A stretch of DNA of 18,001 bases from Candidatus Bipolaricaulota bacterium (GTDB lineage Bacteria > Bipolaricaulota > Bipolaricaulia > UBA7950 > UBA9294), in assembly GCA_040752575.1 (NCBI GenBank), contig JBFMGK010000008.1, positions 1-18,001 on the forward strand. The letters run 5' to 3'. Below are positions 13,933 to 18,001 of this stretch, in pieces. Each line of letters begins with the position of its first letter. Within the stretch, counting starts at the first letter, position 1. Made by a program: the position numbers and the translations under genes. The notes under the pieces were generated by a model. It ran no database searches. It saw only the letters and a program-made list of their open reading frames with translations, and was not told the DNA's origin.

Positions 13933-14006
13933 GCCCCCGTACCTCAACGGATAGAGGACACCTTTGGCGAAGTGTGAAGTTCAGAGTTCGAGTCTCTGCG
14001 GGGGTA
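13933..14006 (+). tRNA. Non-canonical tRNA: anticodon GGC with bulged stem, or 8-nt loop; Arg-like D-loop; no encoded CCA
   Basis: Acceptor GCCCCCG/CGGGGGT + A73; D arm CCTC-AACGGATA-GAGG; T arm CAGAG-TTCGAGT-CTCTG; anticodon arm CACCT-TTGGCGA-AG[T]GTG; TACAAT -10 box at 13922-13927. Confidence 0.85.
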
Positions 14007-14023
14007 CTTGCGTATTCTTGCCC

Positions 14024-14057
14024 TTGACAGCCAACACGTCAATGTCTACACTGTCAA
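14024..14057 (+). promoter_or_regulatory. Near-consensus sigma70 promoter overlapped by an inverted repeat
   Basis: TTGACA (14024-14029), 17 bp, TACACT (14047-14052); TTGACAG...CTGTCAA inverted repeat at 14024-14030 / 14051-14057. Confidence 0.7.
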
Positions 14058-14148
14058 CTGCCAAAGGTACTCTGTCCGGGTAGCGCTATGCGCCTTGGAC
14101 TCGGAAAGAGATGCTGACGAAGCCTCCGAGAGGGGGCTTCGTCGTTGT
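14058..14148 (+). ncRNA. Candidate ~90-nt small RNA (IS passenger)
   Basis: Lies between the promoter and a terminator-like hairpin and has no ORF; nested stems CTCT/AGAG, CCGGGT/ACTCGG, GCGC-TAT-GCGC. Confidence 0.5.
14116..14148 (+). terminator. GC-rich terminator-like hairpin, possibly bidirectional with the transposase
   Basis: GACGAAGCCTCC-GAGA-GGGGGCTTCGTC then GTTGT; the G-U pair forms only on the + strand. Confidence 0.6.
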
Positions 14149-14152
14149 ACTG

Positions 14153-15013
14153 CTAACAGCTTCCTAGAACAAAGCTGACTAGCGCCTCACGATCCTTGAG
14201 GTTTGACTGCCGGAAGGCGAACTCGTCCAGGTATTCCTGAAGGTACTTGGCCGAGAGATGGTGGTAGACGCCCATCAGGCCGCGCTTGAAGAGGCCCCAG
14301 AAGTTCTCGACGCGGTTGACGTGGACGCCACGGCGGGAGTACTGCGAGTGTCCGGCCCAGCCGTGATTCACGGTGTAGTGTGGCGCGATGTCTCCGAGGA
14401 ACTGGAGGCGGAGCGCGGCGTCCGTGTAGAACGACCTGACCTTGCCGAGGTTCGTAGTGCAGACACGAACAATCTCCGCCTTGGTCAGGCGTTCCAGAAC
14501 GAACATGCGAACGGTTCCAGACGTGCGCGAGACCATTCCCAGAACGTCCTTCGCGCAGTAGGGGATGTTCCCGGTCGCAGTGCCGCCATCGGCCTTGATA
14601 ACGCCCTCGTCGATCTCGACTTTCCCGGTTACGCGCACGCCGAGCATGTTCTTCTGGATTGCGAGGCGTATACGGCGGCTCAGGTACCAAGCGGTTTTGT
14701 ATGTGACGCCAAGCTCGCGCTGGATCTGCTTCGACGAGATCCCTTTCGGGGAGTGGCAGCCGAGCCAGACAGCCATTAGCCAGCGTGGTAGATCAATGTG
14801 CGTCTTGTGGAACACGGTTCCAGATGTGACAGAGAACTGATACCGGCACTCGCACTGCCACTGATGGCGAGATCCCATGTAGGTGACGGACTTCGATCCG
14901 CAGCGGGGACAAGTCACGCCGTTGGGCCAGCGCATCGAGGCCATGTACTCCTCGCAGGATTCTTGCGTAGAGAACTGCTTTCGCGCTTCGACCAGGCTTG
15001 TGATCTTGTCCAT
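14153..15013 (-). CDS. IS1595 family DDE transposase
   Basis: N-terminal Zn ribbon (RWPNGVTCPRC...WQCECRYQFSVTSGTVFHKT), HTH (GISSKQIQRELGVTYKTAW), VEIDE, YTD, HVNRVENFWGLFKRG, YLDEFAFR; GGGAGG RBS before ATG 15013. Confidence 0.96.
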   Translation of the reverse strand: MDKITSLVEARKQFSTQESCEEYMASMRWPNGVTCPRCGSKSVTYMGSRHQWQCECRYQFSVTSGTVFHKTHIDLPRWLMAVWLGCHSPKGISSKQIQRELGVTYKTAWYLSRRIRLAIQKNMLGVRVTGKVEIDEGVIKADGGTATGNIPYCAKDVLGMVSRTSGTVRMFVLERLTKAEIVRVCTTNLGKVRSFYTDAALRLQFLGDIAPHYTVNHGWAGHSQYSRRGVHVNRVENFWGLFKRGLMGVYHHLSAKYLQEYLDEFAFRQSNLKDREALVSFVLGSC

Positions 15014-15027
15014 GTCTTGACCTCCCG

Positions 15028-15098
15028 CGTTCATTATCCAATGAACGTATCGAGAGTCAAGCCCTTGGCGGCCCGGTTCATTGCTTGTAGAATGAACC
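15028..15098. promoter_or_regulatory. Divergent promoters (transposase / RHH), each overlapped by a GTTCATT...AATGAAC palindromic operator
   Basis: CGTTCATT-ATCC-AATGAACG (15028-15047) covers the -10 of minus-strand TTGACT-16-GATAAT. GGTTCATT-8nt-AATGAACC (15075-15098) covers the -10 of plus-strand TTGGCG-17-TAGAAT. Confidence 0.7.
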
Positions 15099-15099
15099 C

Positions 15100-15270
15100 A
15101 TGCCTAGGAAACCGATGTTCGAGAAGGACCCGCTGGTTCCGAAGCAGATCTCGCTTCAGTTCAGCATCAAAGAGGCCCTGAAAGCCGCCGCGCTGAAGTC
15201 GGGGAAGTCTGAGTCTGAGATCGTGCGGGATGCCCTAGCCGCCGAATTGAAGAAGTACGGAAAGGACTAG
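15100..15270 (+). CDS. CopG/ribbon-helix-helix DNA-binding protein, 56 aa, leaderless (below the ORF-track cutoff)
   Basis: MPRKPMFEKDPLVPKQISLQFSIKEALKAAALKSGKSESEIVRDALAAELKKYGKD*: beta strand, helix, then the GxSxSEIVRDAL helix typical of RHH; ATG 6 nt after TAGAAT. Confidence 0.85.
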   Translation: MPRKPMFEKDPLVPKQISLQFSIKEALKAAALKSGKSESEIVRDALAAELKKYGKD

Positions 15271-15281
15271 TCGAACCCGTC

Positions 15282-15917
15282 TCACGATCTCAGGGGCATC
15301 TTGCCAATCAGAGATCCAAGATCCACGGACGACCAACACGCTTTGCGCAACTCCATCCCGTCTGGTGGGAAACCGACGTGGATAACACGTTTGCCTTTCT
15401 CCTGGACGAATTCGACCGCAGGGATGTAGTCTGCATCGGCCGAAACAAGAACGGCCGTGTCATACGTGTCTTCCCAAGCGTGCTTCAGGAGGTCCGTGAC
15501 AAGCCCCGTGTCAATGCCTTTCTCTCCCATTCTTCGGATTGGTTCCTTGCAGTACGGGCACACGGAGATCTCTGCGTGGCAGACGGGGCATTTGGGAGGG
15601 CTCTTTGGCTTGCGTTCTTTCGTGACGACCTTCATCCCCGGCGCTCTGGACACCACATTCTCTAGCCACGACTTCAGATGCCCGTCTTTGGGGTTCCAGG
15701 CGTCATATGAAGCGTAGACGATTCCACCCACATACTTTCCTGGCGATTCCCCGGTTGCTGCGATTACCTCGTCCGCACGGTTAGCGATCCAAACCGGCAA
15801 CGCAATCCAATCCAGTTTCAGTTGCGCGCCAGCTCGCTCGTTGAGAGTCAGTTGGAAGTTCCAGTAGTCGAGAAAGACCCGAAGGCGCTGAGTCTGAGCT
15901 GCGGGGTTCTCTGACAC
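15282..15917 (-). CDS. NYN domain (LabA/DUF88, PIN-like) ribonuclease with inserted Zn ribbon (IS passenger)
   Basis: RVFLDYWNF, CPVC...CPYC, EKGIDTGLVTDL, AVLVSADADYIPAV, KGKRVIHVGF, ELRKAC; GGAGG RBS favours GTG 15917. Confidence 0.93.
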   Translation of the reverse strand: MSENPAAQTQRLRVFLDYWNFQLTLNERAGAQLKLDWIALPVWIANRADEVIAATGESPGKYVGGIVYASYDAWNPKDGHLKSWLENVVSRAPGMKVVTKERKPKSPPKCPVCHAEISVCPYCKEPIRRMGEKGIDTGLVTDLLKHAWEDTYDTAVLVSADADYIPAVEFVQEKGKRVIHVGFPPDGMELRKACWSSVDLGSLIGKMPLRS

Positions 15918-15940
15918 GCTCAACCTCCGACTAAGGAATT

Positions 15941-16028
15941 CAGGGGGGCCATGGCGGCCCCCCTGGGTCTATCATTTCAGGCGGCTCTCACCGGGGTCTA
16001 TGGCATACCGCCTGAGGGCTGTAATGAC
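15941..16028 (-). ncRNA. Structured leader RNA plus terminator-like hairpin upstream of NYN-1
   Basis: GUCAUU/AAUGAU and UCAGGCGG/CCGCCUGA stems, ATAGACCC present twice, then a perfect 10-bp CAGGGGGGCC/GGCCCCCCTG hairpin. Confidence 0.5.
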
Positions 16029-16063
16029 TTGAGTGTAGCGCGATCCGCAGATCTGTCAAGTCA
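16025..16063 (-). promoter_or_regulatory. Promoter of NYN-1 bracketed by an inverted repeat
   Basis: Minus strand TTGACA (16059-16054), 16 bp, TACACT (16037-16032); TGACTTGA / TCAAGTCA inverted repeat at 16025-16032 / 16056-16063. Confidence 0.65.
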
Positions 16064-16354
16064 CAGATGTCCTCCAGATGGCAGAAATAGGGCCATTCGG
16101 AGCCCCGCGCACTTGCTGCAAGGATCCGTGCGCGAAGACCGCAATCCCCCTGCTGCGGTCGCGGGATAGACGCTAGTACGGAGTCTGCCGGCGGTAGGTC
16201 GGGCGGCGAGAATGGCTTCATATGCGTGCAGACTAGCCGCGCCGCAGCTCTGGGACAAGGCTGTAATGGGTGGCCGCGGCCCTAAAGGGATAAACATGAC
16301 AGCCGTCGAGGCGCGCTCCGAACCAAGAGTCCTGCCGCAGCGCGCCTACGACCG

Positions 16355-16414
16355 GAGGGACTTGCGAACCCGGCCGTCCTCCGCCTCGCCCATTGGAGGA
16401 TGGCTTGGCAGGTC
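16355..16414 (+). repeat. Structured dispersed repeat, copy B (diverged, shorter)
   Basis: GAGGGACTTGCGAACCCGGCCGTCCTCC-12nt-GGAGGATGGCTTGGCAG aligns ungapped with the first 60 nt of copies A and C. Confidence 0.8.
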
Positions 16415-16690
16415 TGCCGGCTGCTCGCGACGCAGCCTCGGGGAGGCATCACTCTCCGGGCCTTGAAGCGAGCGCACGACAGGAATCACGTTCCACTCTA
16501 ACTTGACTCCTCTGCACGACGGTTCGTGAGCTCGCCACCGAGGATCGCTGTCGAACCTTGTCAGTCTGCGCTCCCGGGAGTTCGATGCTCTTCCCTAGAG
16601 ATGCATCGAGCTGACGAACTACTCTTCCTCAAGGATATGTGCTATCATCATCCGATACTCCATCTGGACGCGCCGGGTGACCAACGTCCC

Positions 16691-16719
16691 TTGACGGTCG
16701 GAAGGTGTGGGCATAGGAT
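16691..16719 (+). promoter_or_regulatory. Promoter of NYN-2
   Basis: TTGACG (16691-16696), 17 bp, TAGGAT (16714-16719). Confidence 0.6.
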
Positions 16720-16725
16720 GTGCGC

Positions 16726-16816
16726 AGTTATCGTCCTCTTGTCGCTAGGCCGGATGAATCAATCCGAGCAGGTGCCGAGAGAGTATTTCCAGGGCAGCCT
16801 GCGGGCTGCCCTTTCT
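16726..16816 (+). ncRNA. Structured leader RNA plus intrinsic terminator upstream of NYN-2
   Basis: CTCTT/GAGAG outer stem, CGGAT-GAATCA-ATCCG apical hairpin, then AGGGCAGCC-TGCG-GGCTGCCCT-TTCT (16791-16816) before the GGAGG RBS. Confidence 0.5.
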
Positions 16817-16836
16817 GCTGGACAGCGGAGGCTCCA

Positions 16837-17722
16837 ATGAGAGTCGCCCTGTTCTTCGACGGAAAGAACTTCTGCAGCGCCCTCTCAGCTAGGCACCCCG
16901 GCGTTGAGATCGACTACGACAAACTAGCAGCCTGGGTCACCAGCAAGGTTGGTGGCACCATCCCCGAGTTTCAAGGCGCTTACTAACTACACTGGCCACA
17001 GCGAGGCCCCCGGCGGCGCAACGCAGCCGTTCACGAGCTTCCTGACGAACCTCAACTTGCGGACGGGCTTCTTCGTACAGCGAGAACCGCGCGTCCGAAG
17101 GACTGCGAAGTGTAGACACTGCAACCGCGGCCGGAACTATTGGACGGAGAAGCGCGTCGACACACGACTCGTCGCAGACATGATCCACTACGCTGCAGTG
17201 GACGCCTACGATGTCGCTGTTCTCTTCTCTGGTGATCAGGACCTAGTTCCTGCTGTGGACGCAGCAAAGCATCTTGGCCGGCGGGTGTACGTCGCCACAT
17301 GGTCGCAGCGTGGGCTTTCGAGGGAGCTGCGCGCGTGCTGTTTCGGCGAGATCTGGCTGGAGGACGGGCTACCCGTGTTTCAGACAGGCCGGGTGCGTGC
17401 AACTTCCGCTCCTGCGTCGAGAACGGCAACAGCGTCTCCAGCCGCAACACTGCCTGCGGCGCCCCCGAGCACAGCCTGGGCGGGCGGACCCACGGCGCAG
17501 TCCACAATAGCTGCCGAGTTGACCAAGGCCGAGGGCAGGCTCCCCTGGGTGTCGCGCTGGTACTTCGAGAATCGCTGGGGCGGGGTAGGGCTACCCCCGC
17601 CCGGTTCCCCGGAGCGAGCGGCGGCCGTTCAGGCAGCAGTTCAGAACGCAGAGATCGAGGAGTATGAACACCCCGACCGGCTTGGAAGGGCAACAACAGC
17701 CCTACGAAGTCCGGCCGCGTAG
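16837..17722 (+). pseudogene. NYN domain protein with C-terminal extension, interrupted by a 1-nt insertion (or sequencing error)
   Basis: MRVALFFDGKNF...FQGAY-TAA at 16984-16986. Removing one A gives GAYYYTG, in frame with EKRVDTRLVADMI, AVLFSGDQDLVPAV, GRRVYV and SRELRACC. Confidence 0.88.
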
Positions 17723-17833
17723 CGGATCCGTCTCCCCCTGGAAAGGTGTTCGGGAGAAGCCACTCAGCGGGCCCGGATGACGCTGTGAACCACCTGGGAA
17801 AGGAACACAGACACTGTCGGACTTCTACGTCCA

Positions 17834-17915
17834 GAGGGGTTCATGAACCCGGCCGTCCTCCTCTACGCCCGCTGGAGGACGGCGTGGCAGTTCGCTAGAC
17901 GGTCAGGCGACCGCT
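17834..17915 (+). repeat. Structured dispersed repeat, copy C
   Basis: 76/82 identical to 11222-11303; hairpin GCCGTCCTCC-12nt-GGAGGACGGC. Confidence 0.9.
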
Positions 17916-17943
17916 AACTGCGGCGATCCAAAGCGACTTCGAA

Positions 17944-17997
17944 CGTACATGAGAGACGGGGCCACGTGACGATCAATGGCCCCGTCTCTCATGTACG
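17944..17997. repeat. Perfect 21-bp inverted repeat with 12-nt loop
   Basis: CGTACATGAGAGACGGGGCCA / TGGCCCCGTCTCTCATGTACG. Confidence 0.9.
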
Positions 17998-18001
17998 CCC
18001 G

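Follow-up and report, generated by a model that had tools for sequence, protein, structure and literature searches.

A structured RNA family beside a subfamily of bacterial NYN-domain ribonucleases: a candidate mobile two-gene cassette

Background

Stand-alone bacterial proteins of the NYN (LabA-like) type are common, and we know of almost none with a known substrate or partner. For the comparison of such a protein with an adjacent RNA, three sets of observations are of particular relevance. Type III antitoxins are characterized by a tandem array of short nucleotide repeats (PMC5086642), and phage mutants escaping the type III system ToxIN are described as having made or captured ToxI-like RNA (PMC5086642; PMC3475682). 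A 2026 preprint on noncoding clusters, the text of which makes no mention of NYN, describes structured RNAs located 5′ or 3′ of genes for PIN-domain PhoH2 proteins (bioRxiv 10.64898/2026.10.21.760802). Our literature search returned no paper joining NYN with type III toxin-antitoxin systems. Here, we consider the first 18,001 nucleotides of contig JBFMGK010000008.1 from a Candidatus Bipolaricaulota bacterium (GCA_040752575.1), hereafter the window, and within it NYN-1, the gene of an NYN-domain ribonuclease, whose minus-strand leader had been proposed in an earlier reading of the DNA (the original prediction) to be a type III-like RNA antitoxin or ligand of the protein.

Comparison establishes a structured RNA family with its own promoter, a terminator-like end, an orientation-independent linkage to NYN genes and cassette-like mobility. 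The NYN-1 leader is a member of this predicted family of approximately 100 nt, which is absent from Rfam 15, and the pattern of occurrence fits an RNA that serves as the dedicated partner of the enzyme. Our leading explanation, to which we give somewhat less than an even chance, is that a small-RNA gene of approximately 100 nt and a subfamily of NYN ribonucleases form an autonomous, horizontally moving two-gene cassette, in which the RNA would act as an inhibitory, antidote-like molecule.

A covarying RNA family next to NYN genes

The cassette occupies positions 15282..16100 of the minus strand, from approximately 40 nt 5′ of the −35 box, an upstream limit that is approximate, through the NYN-1 stop codon. 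Two homologues found in species genomes (protein 89% and 76% identical) keep the promoter and the leader, and their DNA further upstream is unrelated. The first helix of the leader, P1, differs by two compensatory changes between the window (UCAGGCGG/CCGCCUGA) and the relative L014 (UCGGGCAG/CUGCCCGA). A metagenome scan with the protein profile yielded 80 loci, 88% to 42% identical to the window protein, nearly all of which share the upstream architecture by eye. When 52 RNAs were aligned with MAFFT, without any structural model, two helices (P1 and P3) emerged, with compensatory changes in 14 of the 18 pairs, and the covariance model R1 was built from this alignment; a second model is referred to as R2.

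Exactly one match to R1 (E ≤ 0.01; covariance-model E-values are rough, the calibration having been shortened) is present in 85 of the 88 NYN-anchored loci, a count that describes the family and is no independent test, because most of these loci supplied sequences to the model. The three misses are L027, where no upstream DNA is available, and L012 and L109, which R2 finds weakly at 21.7 and 24 bits. L012 encodes a 39%-identical homologue whose leader is longer (approximately 150 nt) and has additional hairpins in front of one that resembles P3 (1340–1500; 21.7 bits), and the viral contig L109 (1924–2001; 22.5–24 bits) keeps box 1 and P1, with P3 seemingly absent. The window RNA itself scores 72 bits (E 5e-15) with R1, in whose seed it is included.

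In the model-fitted alignment of the 70 distinct sequences, 94.1% of the helix cells are paired, compared with 72.3% in shuffles and 39–47% with slid partners, and 16 of the 18 pairs change on both sides. This alignment is biased toward the structure of the model; the MAFFT result is free of that bias and agrees with it. The helices contain 74 G.U cells and 22 A.C cells, an excess that fits an RNA read from this strand. The search for covariation among the upstream regions of homologues, suggested together with the original prediction, has thus revealed a conserved leader structure with strong covariation. Within the 2.16-Mb genome the leader RNA is single-copy by BLAST and covariance model. 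Its 117 nt have a minimum free energy of −50.7 kcal/mol (z −3.6), a stability equalled by 0 of 200 shuffles. Rfam 15, searched at E ≤ 1, contains no match to the RNA in the window, and the same search on 18 related loci left the RNA unmatched and returned only tRNAs and spurious miRNA-type matches.

Anatomy of the RNA

All coordinates of the cassette refer to the minus strand. The sigma-70-type promoter of the original prediction, TTGACA-16-TACACT, is indeed found at 16032..16059 and agrees with the consensus in 10 of 12 positions; a promoter scan of 14000–18001 gave seven promoter-like sites against 1.0 expected. In the family, DNA extends 50 nt or more upstream of 68 distinct RNAs; 55 of these show a promoter match of at least 9/12, and in 59 of the 68 the −10 box ends 4–8 nt before the start of the RNA model. 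From this spacing, the likely transcript start is the A of box 1, and for the window, where the full covariance-model match spans 15931..16027, it is probably near A16025.

Two single-stranded boxes of the same design alternate with the helices. Box 1 (AUUACAGCCC, 16016..16025; family consensus AUUGAAGCCC, that is, AUU-N4-CCC) forms the predicted 5′ end of the RNA directly 5′ of P1, and its column counts among the 70 distinct sequences are A64 U57 U61 G53 .. C64 C64 C69. Box 2 (AUGAUAGACC, 15966..15975), directly 5′ of P3, has the same consensus and the same spacing (A67 U68 U48 NNNN C58 C58 C69). P1 (15977..16015) pairs UCAGGCGG (16015–16008) with CCGCCUGA (15984–15977); all seven modelled pairs change on both sides, and 91.7% of the cells are paired. 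It encloses the P2 region (16007–15985), which varies in length and sequence among family members. P3 (15941..15965), 95.7% paired in the family, is in the window the perfect 10-bp GC stem that the original prediction had described, CAGGGGGGCC (15965–15956) pairing with GGCCCCCCUG (15950–15941) around the loop GCCAU. Its foot, CAGGG/CCCUG (5 bp; pairs 95–99 with 126–130), is almost invariant, the upper-stem pairs 100–105 show 18–40 double changes among the 70 sequences, and the loop varies freely. The RNA is thus predicted to consist of two units, each an AUU-N4-CCC box plus a hairpin, followed by a third AUU after P3.

Behind P3, the tail AAUUCCUUAG (15931..15940) has 5 U in 10 nt, with the family consensus W-AUU-n-UUU, and at least 5 U occur within 10 nt after P3 in 60 of the 70 distinct members. 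P3 with its tail looks like an intrinsic terminator, and in the usual tandem layout this palindrome, resembling a Rho-independent terminator, sits between the RNA and the NYN gene. P3 and the start codon are 17–89 nt apart (median 36), separated by an unconserved spacer that leads to a ribosome-binding site. In the window this is GGAGG (15924..15928), 6 nt 5′ of the GTG start codon at 15917, as had been predicted, and the start codon is kept in L013 and L014. The order of promoter, structured RNA, terminator-like hairpin and nuclease, on which the original prediction was built, is kept across the NYN subfamily.

Other parts of that prediction have to be revised. Of the two nested stems, the inner one (UCAGGCGG/CCGCCUGA, now P1) is present in the minimum-energy fold of the leader and covaries, and the outer one (GUCAUU/AAUGAU) is absent from that fold, has three of its five tested pairs mostly unpaired and only 57% of its cells paired among the 70 distinct members, so that we reject it as a family feature. 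The octamer AUAGACCC (ATAGACCC), seen as a recognition or cleavage motif, does have exactly two copies in the 18-kb window, both in the leader (15994–16001 and 15965–15972), against a chance expectation of 0.21, and two copies were reached in 5 of 200 shuffles. As a repeat it is lost in relatives: it is not conserved in L013, L014 or the wider family, and the first copy is unconserved even in the closest relatives. It is rejected as a functional repeat for this lack of conservation. The first AUAGACCC copy (16001–15994) is a clade-specific P2 loop sequence, and the second, overlapping box 2, is simply that box. Tandem Repeats Finder, run on the leader, returned 0 rows and hence no tandem repeat.

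A promoter, a folded RNA, a U-tailed terminator, a ribosome-binding site and a gene, in this order, are also the layout of a transcriptional riboswitch, and conserved single-stranded boxes flanking helices would suit an aptamer for a small molecule or other cellular factor, with P3 as the terminator platform that controls NYN transcription in cis. We regard such a riboswitch or attenuator as improbable. In an expression platform, one would not usually expect the sequence of the terminator foot to be invariant. The RNA is associated with only one gene family, and no conserved antiterminator pairing was seen by eye, no formal test having been run. A pairing between the box 1 CCC and the invariant GGG in P3 is conceivable, and covariation cannot decide on it because these positions never vary. 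The remaining observations against a cis-acting switch, and for a dedicated partner of the enzyme, come from the placement of the RNA described below.

The NYN protein

The NYN-1 gene (15282..15917, minus strand) encodes 211 amino acids, with a CxxC..CxxC zinc-ribbon insert. Its assignment in the original prediction is corroborated by Pfam NYN (PF01936), which matches with 54.6 bits against a cut-off of 24.2 (E 2.3e-14) and is the only Pfam match. Invariant in 58 homologues are F15, D17, W19, N20, E132, K133, G134, D136, D161, D163 and W195, among them the acidic residues (D17, E132, D136, D161 and D163) that had been noted as intact, as well as the zinc-ribbon cysteines C110, C113, C120 and C123. 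The AlphaFold2 model (predicted local distance difference test, pLDDT, 94) has a PIN-like alpha/beta fold, and its best Foldseek matches in the PDB are the LabA-like uncharacterised protein 2qip (E 1.2e-8) and the MARF1 NYN domain (3e-5). Foldseek matches to Sir2 probably reflect a shared Rossmann-like fold and zinc-ribbon arrangement and not function. By sequence, the PDB search finds only 2qip, at a marginal E of 0.14. PADLOC reports HEC-09 (E 1e-13; residues 117–189 against model positions 88–163 of 203) and 'NYN', both confined to the catalytic core.

A homodimer model of the protein scores 0.48, compared with 0.00 for the best of three controls, and passes the mark for dimers, which is a model confidence and not a measurement. 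Of the proteins solved as pairs of one chain, 20 of 30 come up to this mark; of those solved as single chains, 1 of 23 does. At least 98% of the contacts are shared between runs, with a partner pLDDT of at least 88, and the modelled interface comprises the zinc ribbon (residues 108–129) and helix 133–148. As far as we can infer from the model, it is compatible with one dimer reading the two units of the RNA.

Rearranged loci and a phage copy

The RNA lies directly upstream of the NYN gene, on the same strand, in 82 of the 85 linked loci. Examples of ribonuclease self-regulation include Escherichia coli RNase E through the rne leader, RNase III through the rnc leader, and Regnase-1 through a stem-loop in its own 3′ untranslated region (UTR). 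A similar case could be made here: the RNA would be the feedback element of an ordinary accessory ribonuclease, a substrate that the enzyme binds or cuts to set its own expression, acting in cis as the 5′ leader, without any toxicity and with no function in addiction or defence. Its usual place 17–89 nt before the start codon agrees with this, and the conserved hairpin foot and the boxes resemble a protein recognition site. We nevertheless hold autoregulation to be unlikely, in part on account of the three linked loci in which the RNA is convergent or divergent to the NYN gene, since RNAs with promoters of their own in these orientations cannot act as leaders. The RNA of L063 is read from its own TTGACT-17-TACCAT promoter, convergently with the NYN gene. 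L061 shows the same convergent arrangement, with P3 overlapping the NYN stop codon and a weak best promoter match (8/12). The arrangement in L059 is divergent: the RNA starts from a TTGACA promoter of its own, and a separate 5′ region precedes the NYN gene. Between L063 and L098, a locus of the ordinary tandem type, identity is 82% in the RNA and 76% in the protein, a close kinship indicating that the rearrangement is recent and that both genes were kept. With these three loci, the RNA is not merely a 5′ leader, and the same three of 85 linked copies are placed where control of NYN transcription by a riboswitch is impossible.

A pattern scan of viral contigs further identified an orphan copy of the RNA (78.3 bits) in a phage genome of 60.8 kb (G184, 31079–31181; locus L104, region 1493–2239), which is complete, with direct terminal repeats and a CheckV completeness of 100%. 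No NYN gene was found in this phage by the subfamily profile or by PF01936 at E ≤ 1, a search that in its control was positive in 10 of 14 known genomes. Downstream of the phage RNA are a ribosome-binding site, a 47-codon open reading frame (ORF), a gene for an HNH/NUMOD4 homing-type endonuclease and a DUF5131 phage gene. A copy that precedes these genes and no NYN gene speaks against a switch for NYN transcription, and it has no obvious role under autoregulation. Another viral copy (L105) is truncated at the end of its contig. The wider viral pattern scan added only chance matches, 7 of its 9 loci being without a model match at E ≤ 0.1. Four viral or proviral contigs contain NYN homologues, three of them with the RNA upstream (45–49 bits) and the fourth being the weakly matching L109. 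The proposal that the RNA is a partner of NYN and not a plain leader is, in part, borne out by the three rearranged loci and the orphan phage copy.

A partner need not be an inhibitor. The RNA could be a scaffold, a specificity factor or a sensor that activates or targets the NYN ribonuclease in a ribonucleoprotein, comparable to the bacterial Y RNAs encoded beside rsr. The one-to-one linkage in any orientation, the separate promoter and terminator, the conserved elements of a protein-recognition type and the modelled dimer would all accord with such a cofactor. We consider it to have a small chance, as the RNA has no variable unpaired segment resembling a guide, its variable parts being the P2 hairpin and the P3 loop, and as a copy without the enzyme, in the phage, better suits a decoy or an antidote.

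Mobility and genomic context

Among four close relatives in four contexts, alignments of the window with L013, L014 and L022 show similarity that begins approximately 40 nt 5′ of the −35 box and ends with the stop codon. The subfamily gene is present in only 4 of the 184 genomes of the phylum. In a set of 1.84 billion representatives, the subfamily (E ≤ 1e-30) makes up 154 clusters at 50% identity. Overall, the cassette is distributed over many uncultured bacteria, with the RNA alone in one complete phage. This very patchy, cassette-like distribution suits a selfish or defence module better than it suits autoregulation. The longest ORF per flank in non-redundant loci (106 ORFs) revealed no recurrent partner gene. 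The flanking ORFs include a DNA methylase, an IS1595 transposase, an integrase, McrBC, a ResIII helicase and AbiEi; many are housekeeping genes (fumarase, peroxiredoxin, DnaJ, SAM synthetase, GluRS) and not defence genes, and such neighbours speak for autoregulation of an ordinary ribonuclease.

Sharp borders and different contexts, even among relatives 76–89% identical, together with the patchy distribution and the frequent vicinity of tRNA genes, an integrase or IS1595, could also describe a selfish mobile cassette, in which NYN would be a homing-type nuclease and the RNA or its hairpin would serve expression, insulation or mobility. This we judge very improbable. All characterized NYN-domain enzymes known to us cut RNA, no target-site duplication or empty-site comparison was found, and the strand-specific G.U pairing and the covariation point to an element that functions as RNA, not as a DNA site. 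Toxin-antitoxin modules are typically mobile too, so that a selfish cassette is compatible with the antidote-like RNA and nuclease that we favour.

In the window, the cassette lies within an island that follows a tRNA gene (13933–14006, plus strand) and contains the gene of an IS1595-family transposase (14153–15034, minus strand), a small gene for a 56-residue ribbon-helix-helix (CopG-type) protein (15100–15270, plus strand), convergent with NYN-1 and with 11 nt between the stop codons, and a frameshifted second NYN gene. Right after the tRNA gene is a promoter-like TTGACA-17-TACACT site (14024–14052, plus strand), with the same hexamers as the NYN-1 promoter. The cassette of the relative L014 likewise borders on an IS1595 transposase gene. 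Four of the 18 loci in the Rfam search (L030, L036, L069 and L084) have tRNA genes at most 1.5 kb from the cassette, and L036 also has a partial tRNA-like match (32.6 bits) just downstream of the NYN gene.

The second NYN gene, NYN-2 (16691–17722, plus strand), is different from NYN-1 and divergent from it at approximately 0.6 kb. It has a promoter-like TTGACG-17-TAGGAT site (16691–16719, plus strand) and a leader with a 9-bp hairpin, AGGGCAGCC/GGCUGCCCU (16791–16812), and GGAGG; R1 and R2 give only a 4.9-bit hairpin match on this leader, for which family membership is not claimed. The frame from ATG 16837 stops at 16984–16986, and the NYN core continues in another frame (16949–17722), so that the gene is frameshifted or the assembly contains an error. 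A long, near-perfect hairpin of approximately 25 bp at the end of both the window and the contig (17940–18001) is a source of the spurious Rfam miRNA matches.

How the cassette may work

The strong promoter and the terminator before the nuclease gene suggest that the RNA would be made in excess over the enzyme, as in type III systems, since transcription should mostly end at P3; read-through past P3 would then express NYN in loci of the usual tandem layout. An NYN dimer, with its zinc-ribbon interface, might bind the two AUU-N4-CCC plus hairpin units and possibly cut the RNA at the AUU boundaries. Binding of the RNA would keep the ribonuclease inactive until the supply of RNA fails, for example upon phage infection. 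The cassette would then work on the principle of type III toxin-antitoxin or abortive-infection systems, with another toxin fold and with a structured RNA in place of a tandem repeat array. The most specific version of the proposal, a new class of RNA-antitoxin systems in which a dimeric NYN toxin is held inactive by a two-unit RNA as a 0.8-kb addiction or abortive-infection module that phages counter with the RNA alone, is possible but doubtful.

A number of observations weigh against an antidote-like RNA. Most copies are placed where a cis-acting leader would explain them equally well, and the rearranged loci are only three. The orphan copy occurs in only one complete phage, which makes it a lead and not a pattern, and a sigma-70 promoter is not recognisable upstream of it (best match 6/12). 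The U-tail in the window is weak, as had already been remarked in the original prediction. The HEC-09 match to a defence collection extends no further than the NYN core that the two proteins share, and many of the flanking genes have housekeeping functions. Binding of both units by one dimer and cleavage at the AUU boundaries are steps that we infer. The two sequence features that define type III systems are also missing, namely a toxin of the ToxN kind and an antitoxin RNA made of tandem repeats.

The NYN subfamily now has a concrete candidate RNA partner, and this RNA has unusually clean comparative support with no counterpart in Rfam 15. If the RNA is an antidote, type III-like RNA antitoxins would not be confined to toxins of the ToxN fold or to tandem arrays, and searches based on repeats would have missed antitoxins of this kind. 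The orphan RNA of the phage would, in that case, be a natural example of RNA-based counter-defence.

Comparison with known systems

The likeness to ToxIN, CptIN and TenpIN that motivated the original prediction holds for the layout, in which a strong promoter, a non-coding RNA and a Rho-independent terminator are followed by an endoribonuclease gene (PMC5086642). It extends to the small, autonomous and horizontally spread cassette in which RNA and protein are co-inherited, and to a phage that carries the RNA alone, which recalls the ToxIN escape mutants (PMC5086642; PMC3475682). The likeness does not extend to the components. An NYN (PIN-like) domain with a zinc ribbon stands here in place of the ToxN, CptN or TenpN fold, a single RNA of approximately 100 nt with two dissimilar hairpin units in place of tandem repeats of 34–45 nt, and three loci have the RNA elsewhere than upstream of the nuclease gene. 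Members of type III are further characterized by a toxic protein that processes the RNA and is neutralised by it, the RNA forming a pseudoknot and blocking the active site in a closed complex. Since both the toxin fold and the tandem repeats differ, the predicted cassette is type III-like in function at most and is not a member of the type.

With the rne and rnc leaders and the Regnase-1 3′ UTR, the RNA shares a conserved hairpin in the transcript of a ribonuclease, possibly recognised by the enzyme itself; in contrast to these, it has a promoter-defined 5′ end and a terminator, and it can be encoded on the strand opposite to the NYN gene or in a phage that lacks the enzyme. The protein resembles LabA-like and MARF1-type NYN proteins (PF01936; 2qip, 6fdl, 5yaa) in its fold and acidic catalytic residues, whereas the subfamily described here is distinguished by the CxxC..CxxC zinc-ribbon insert and a dedicated RNA neighbour. 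The RNAs reported near PhoH2 genes are similar in being uncatalogued, covarying RNAs beside the gene of a PIN-like nuclease (bioRxiv 10.64898/2026.10.21.760802); the protein family and the RNA both differ from those of the NYN cassette.

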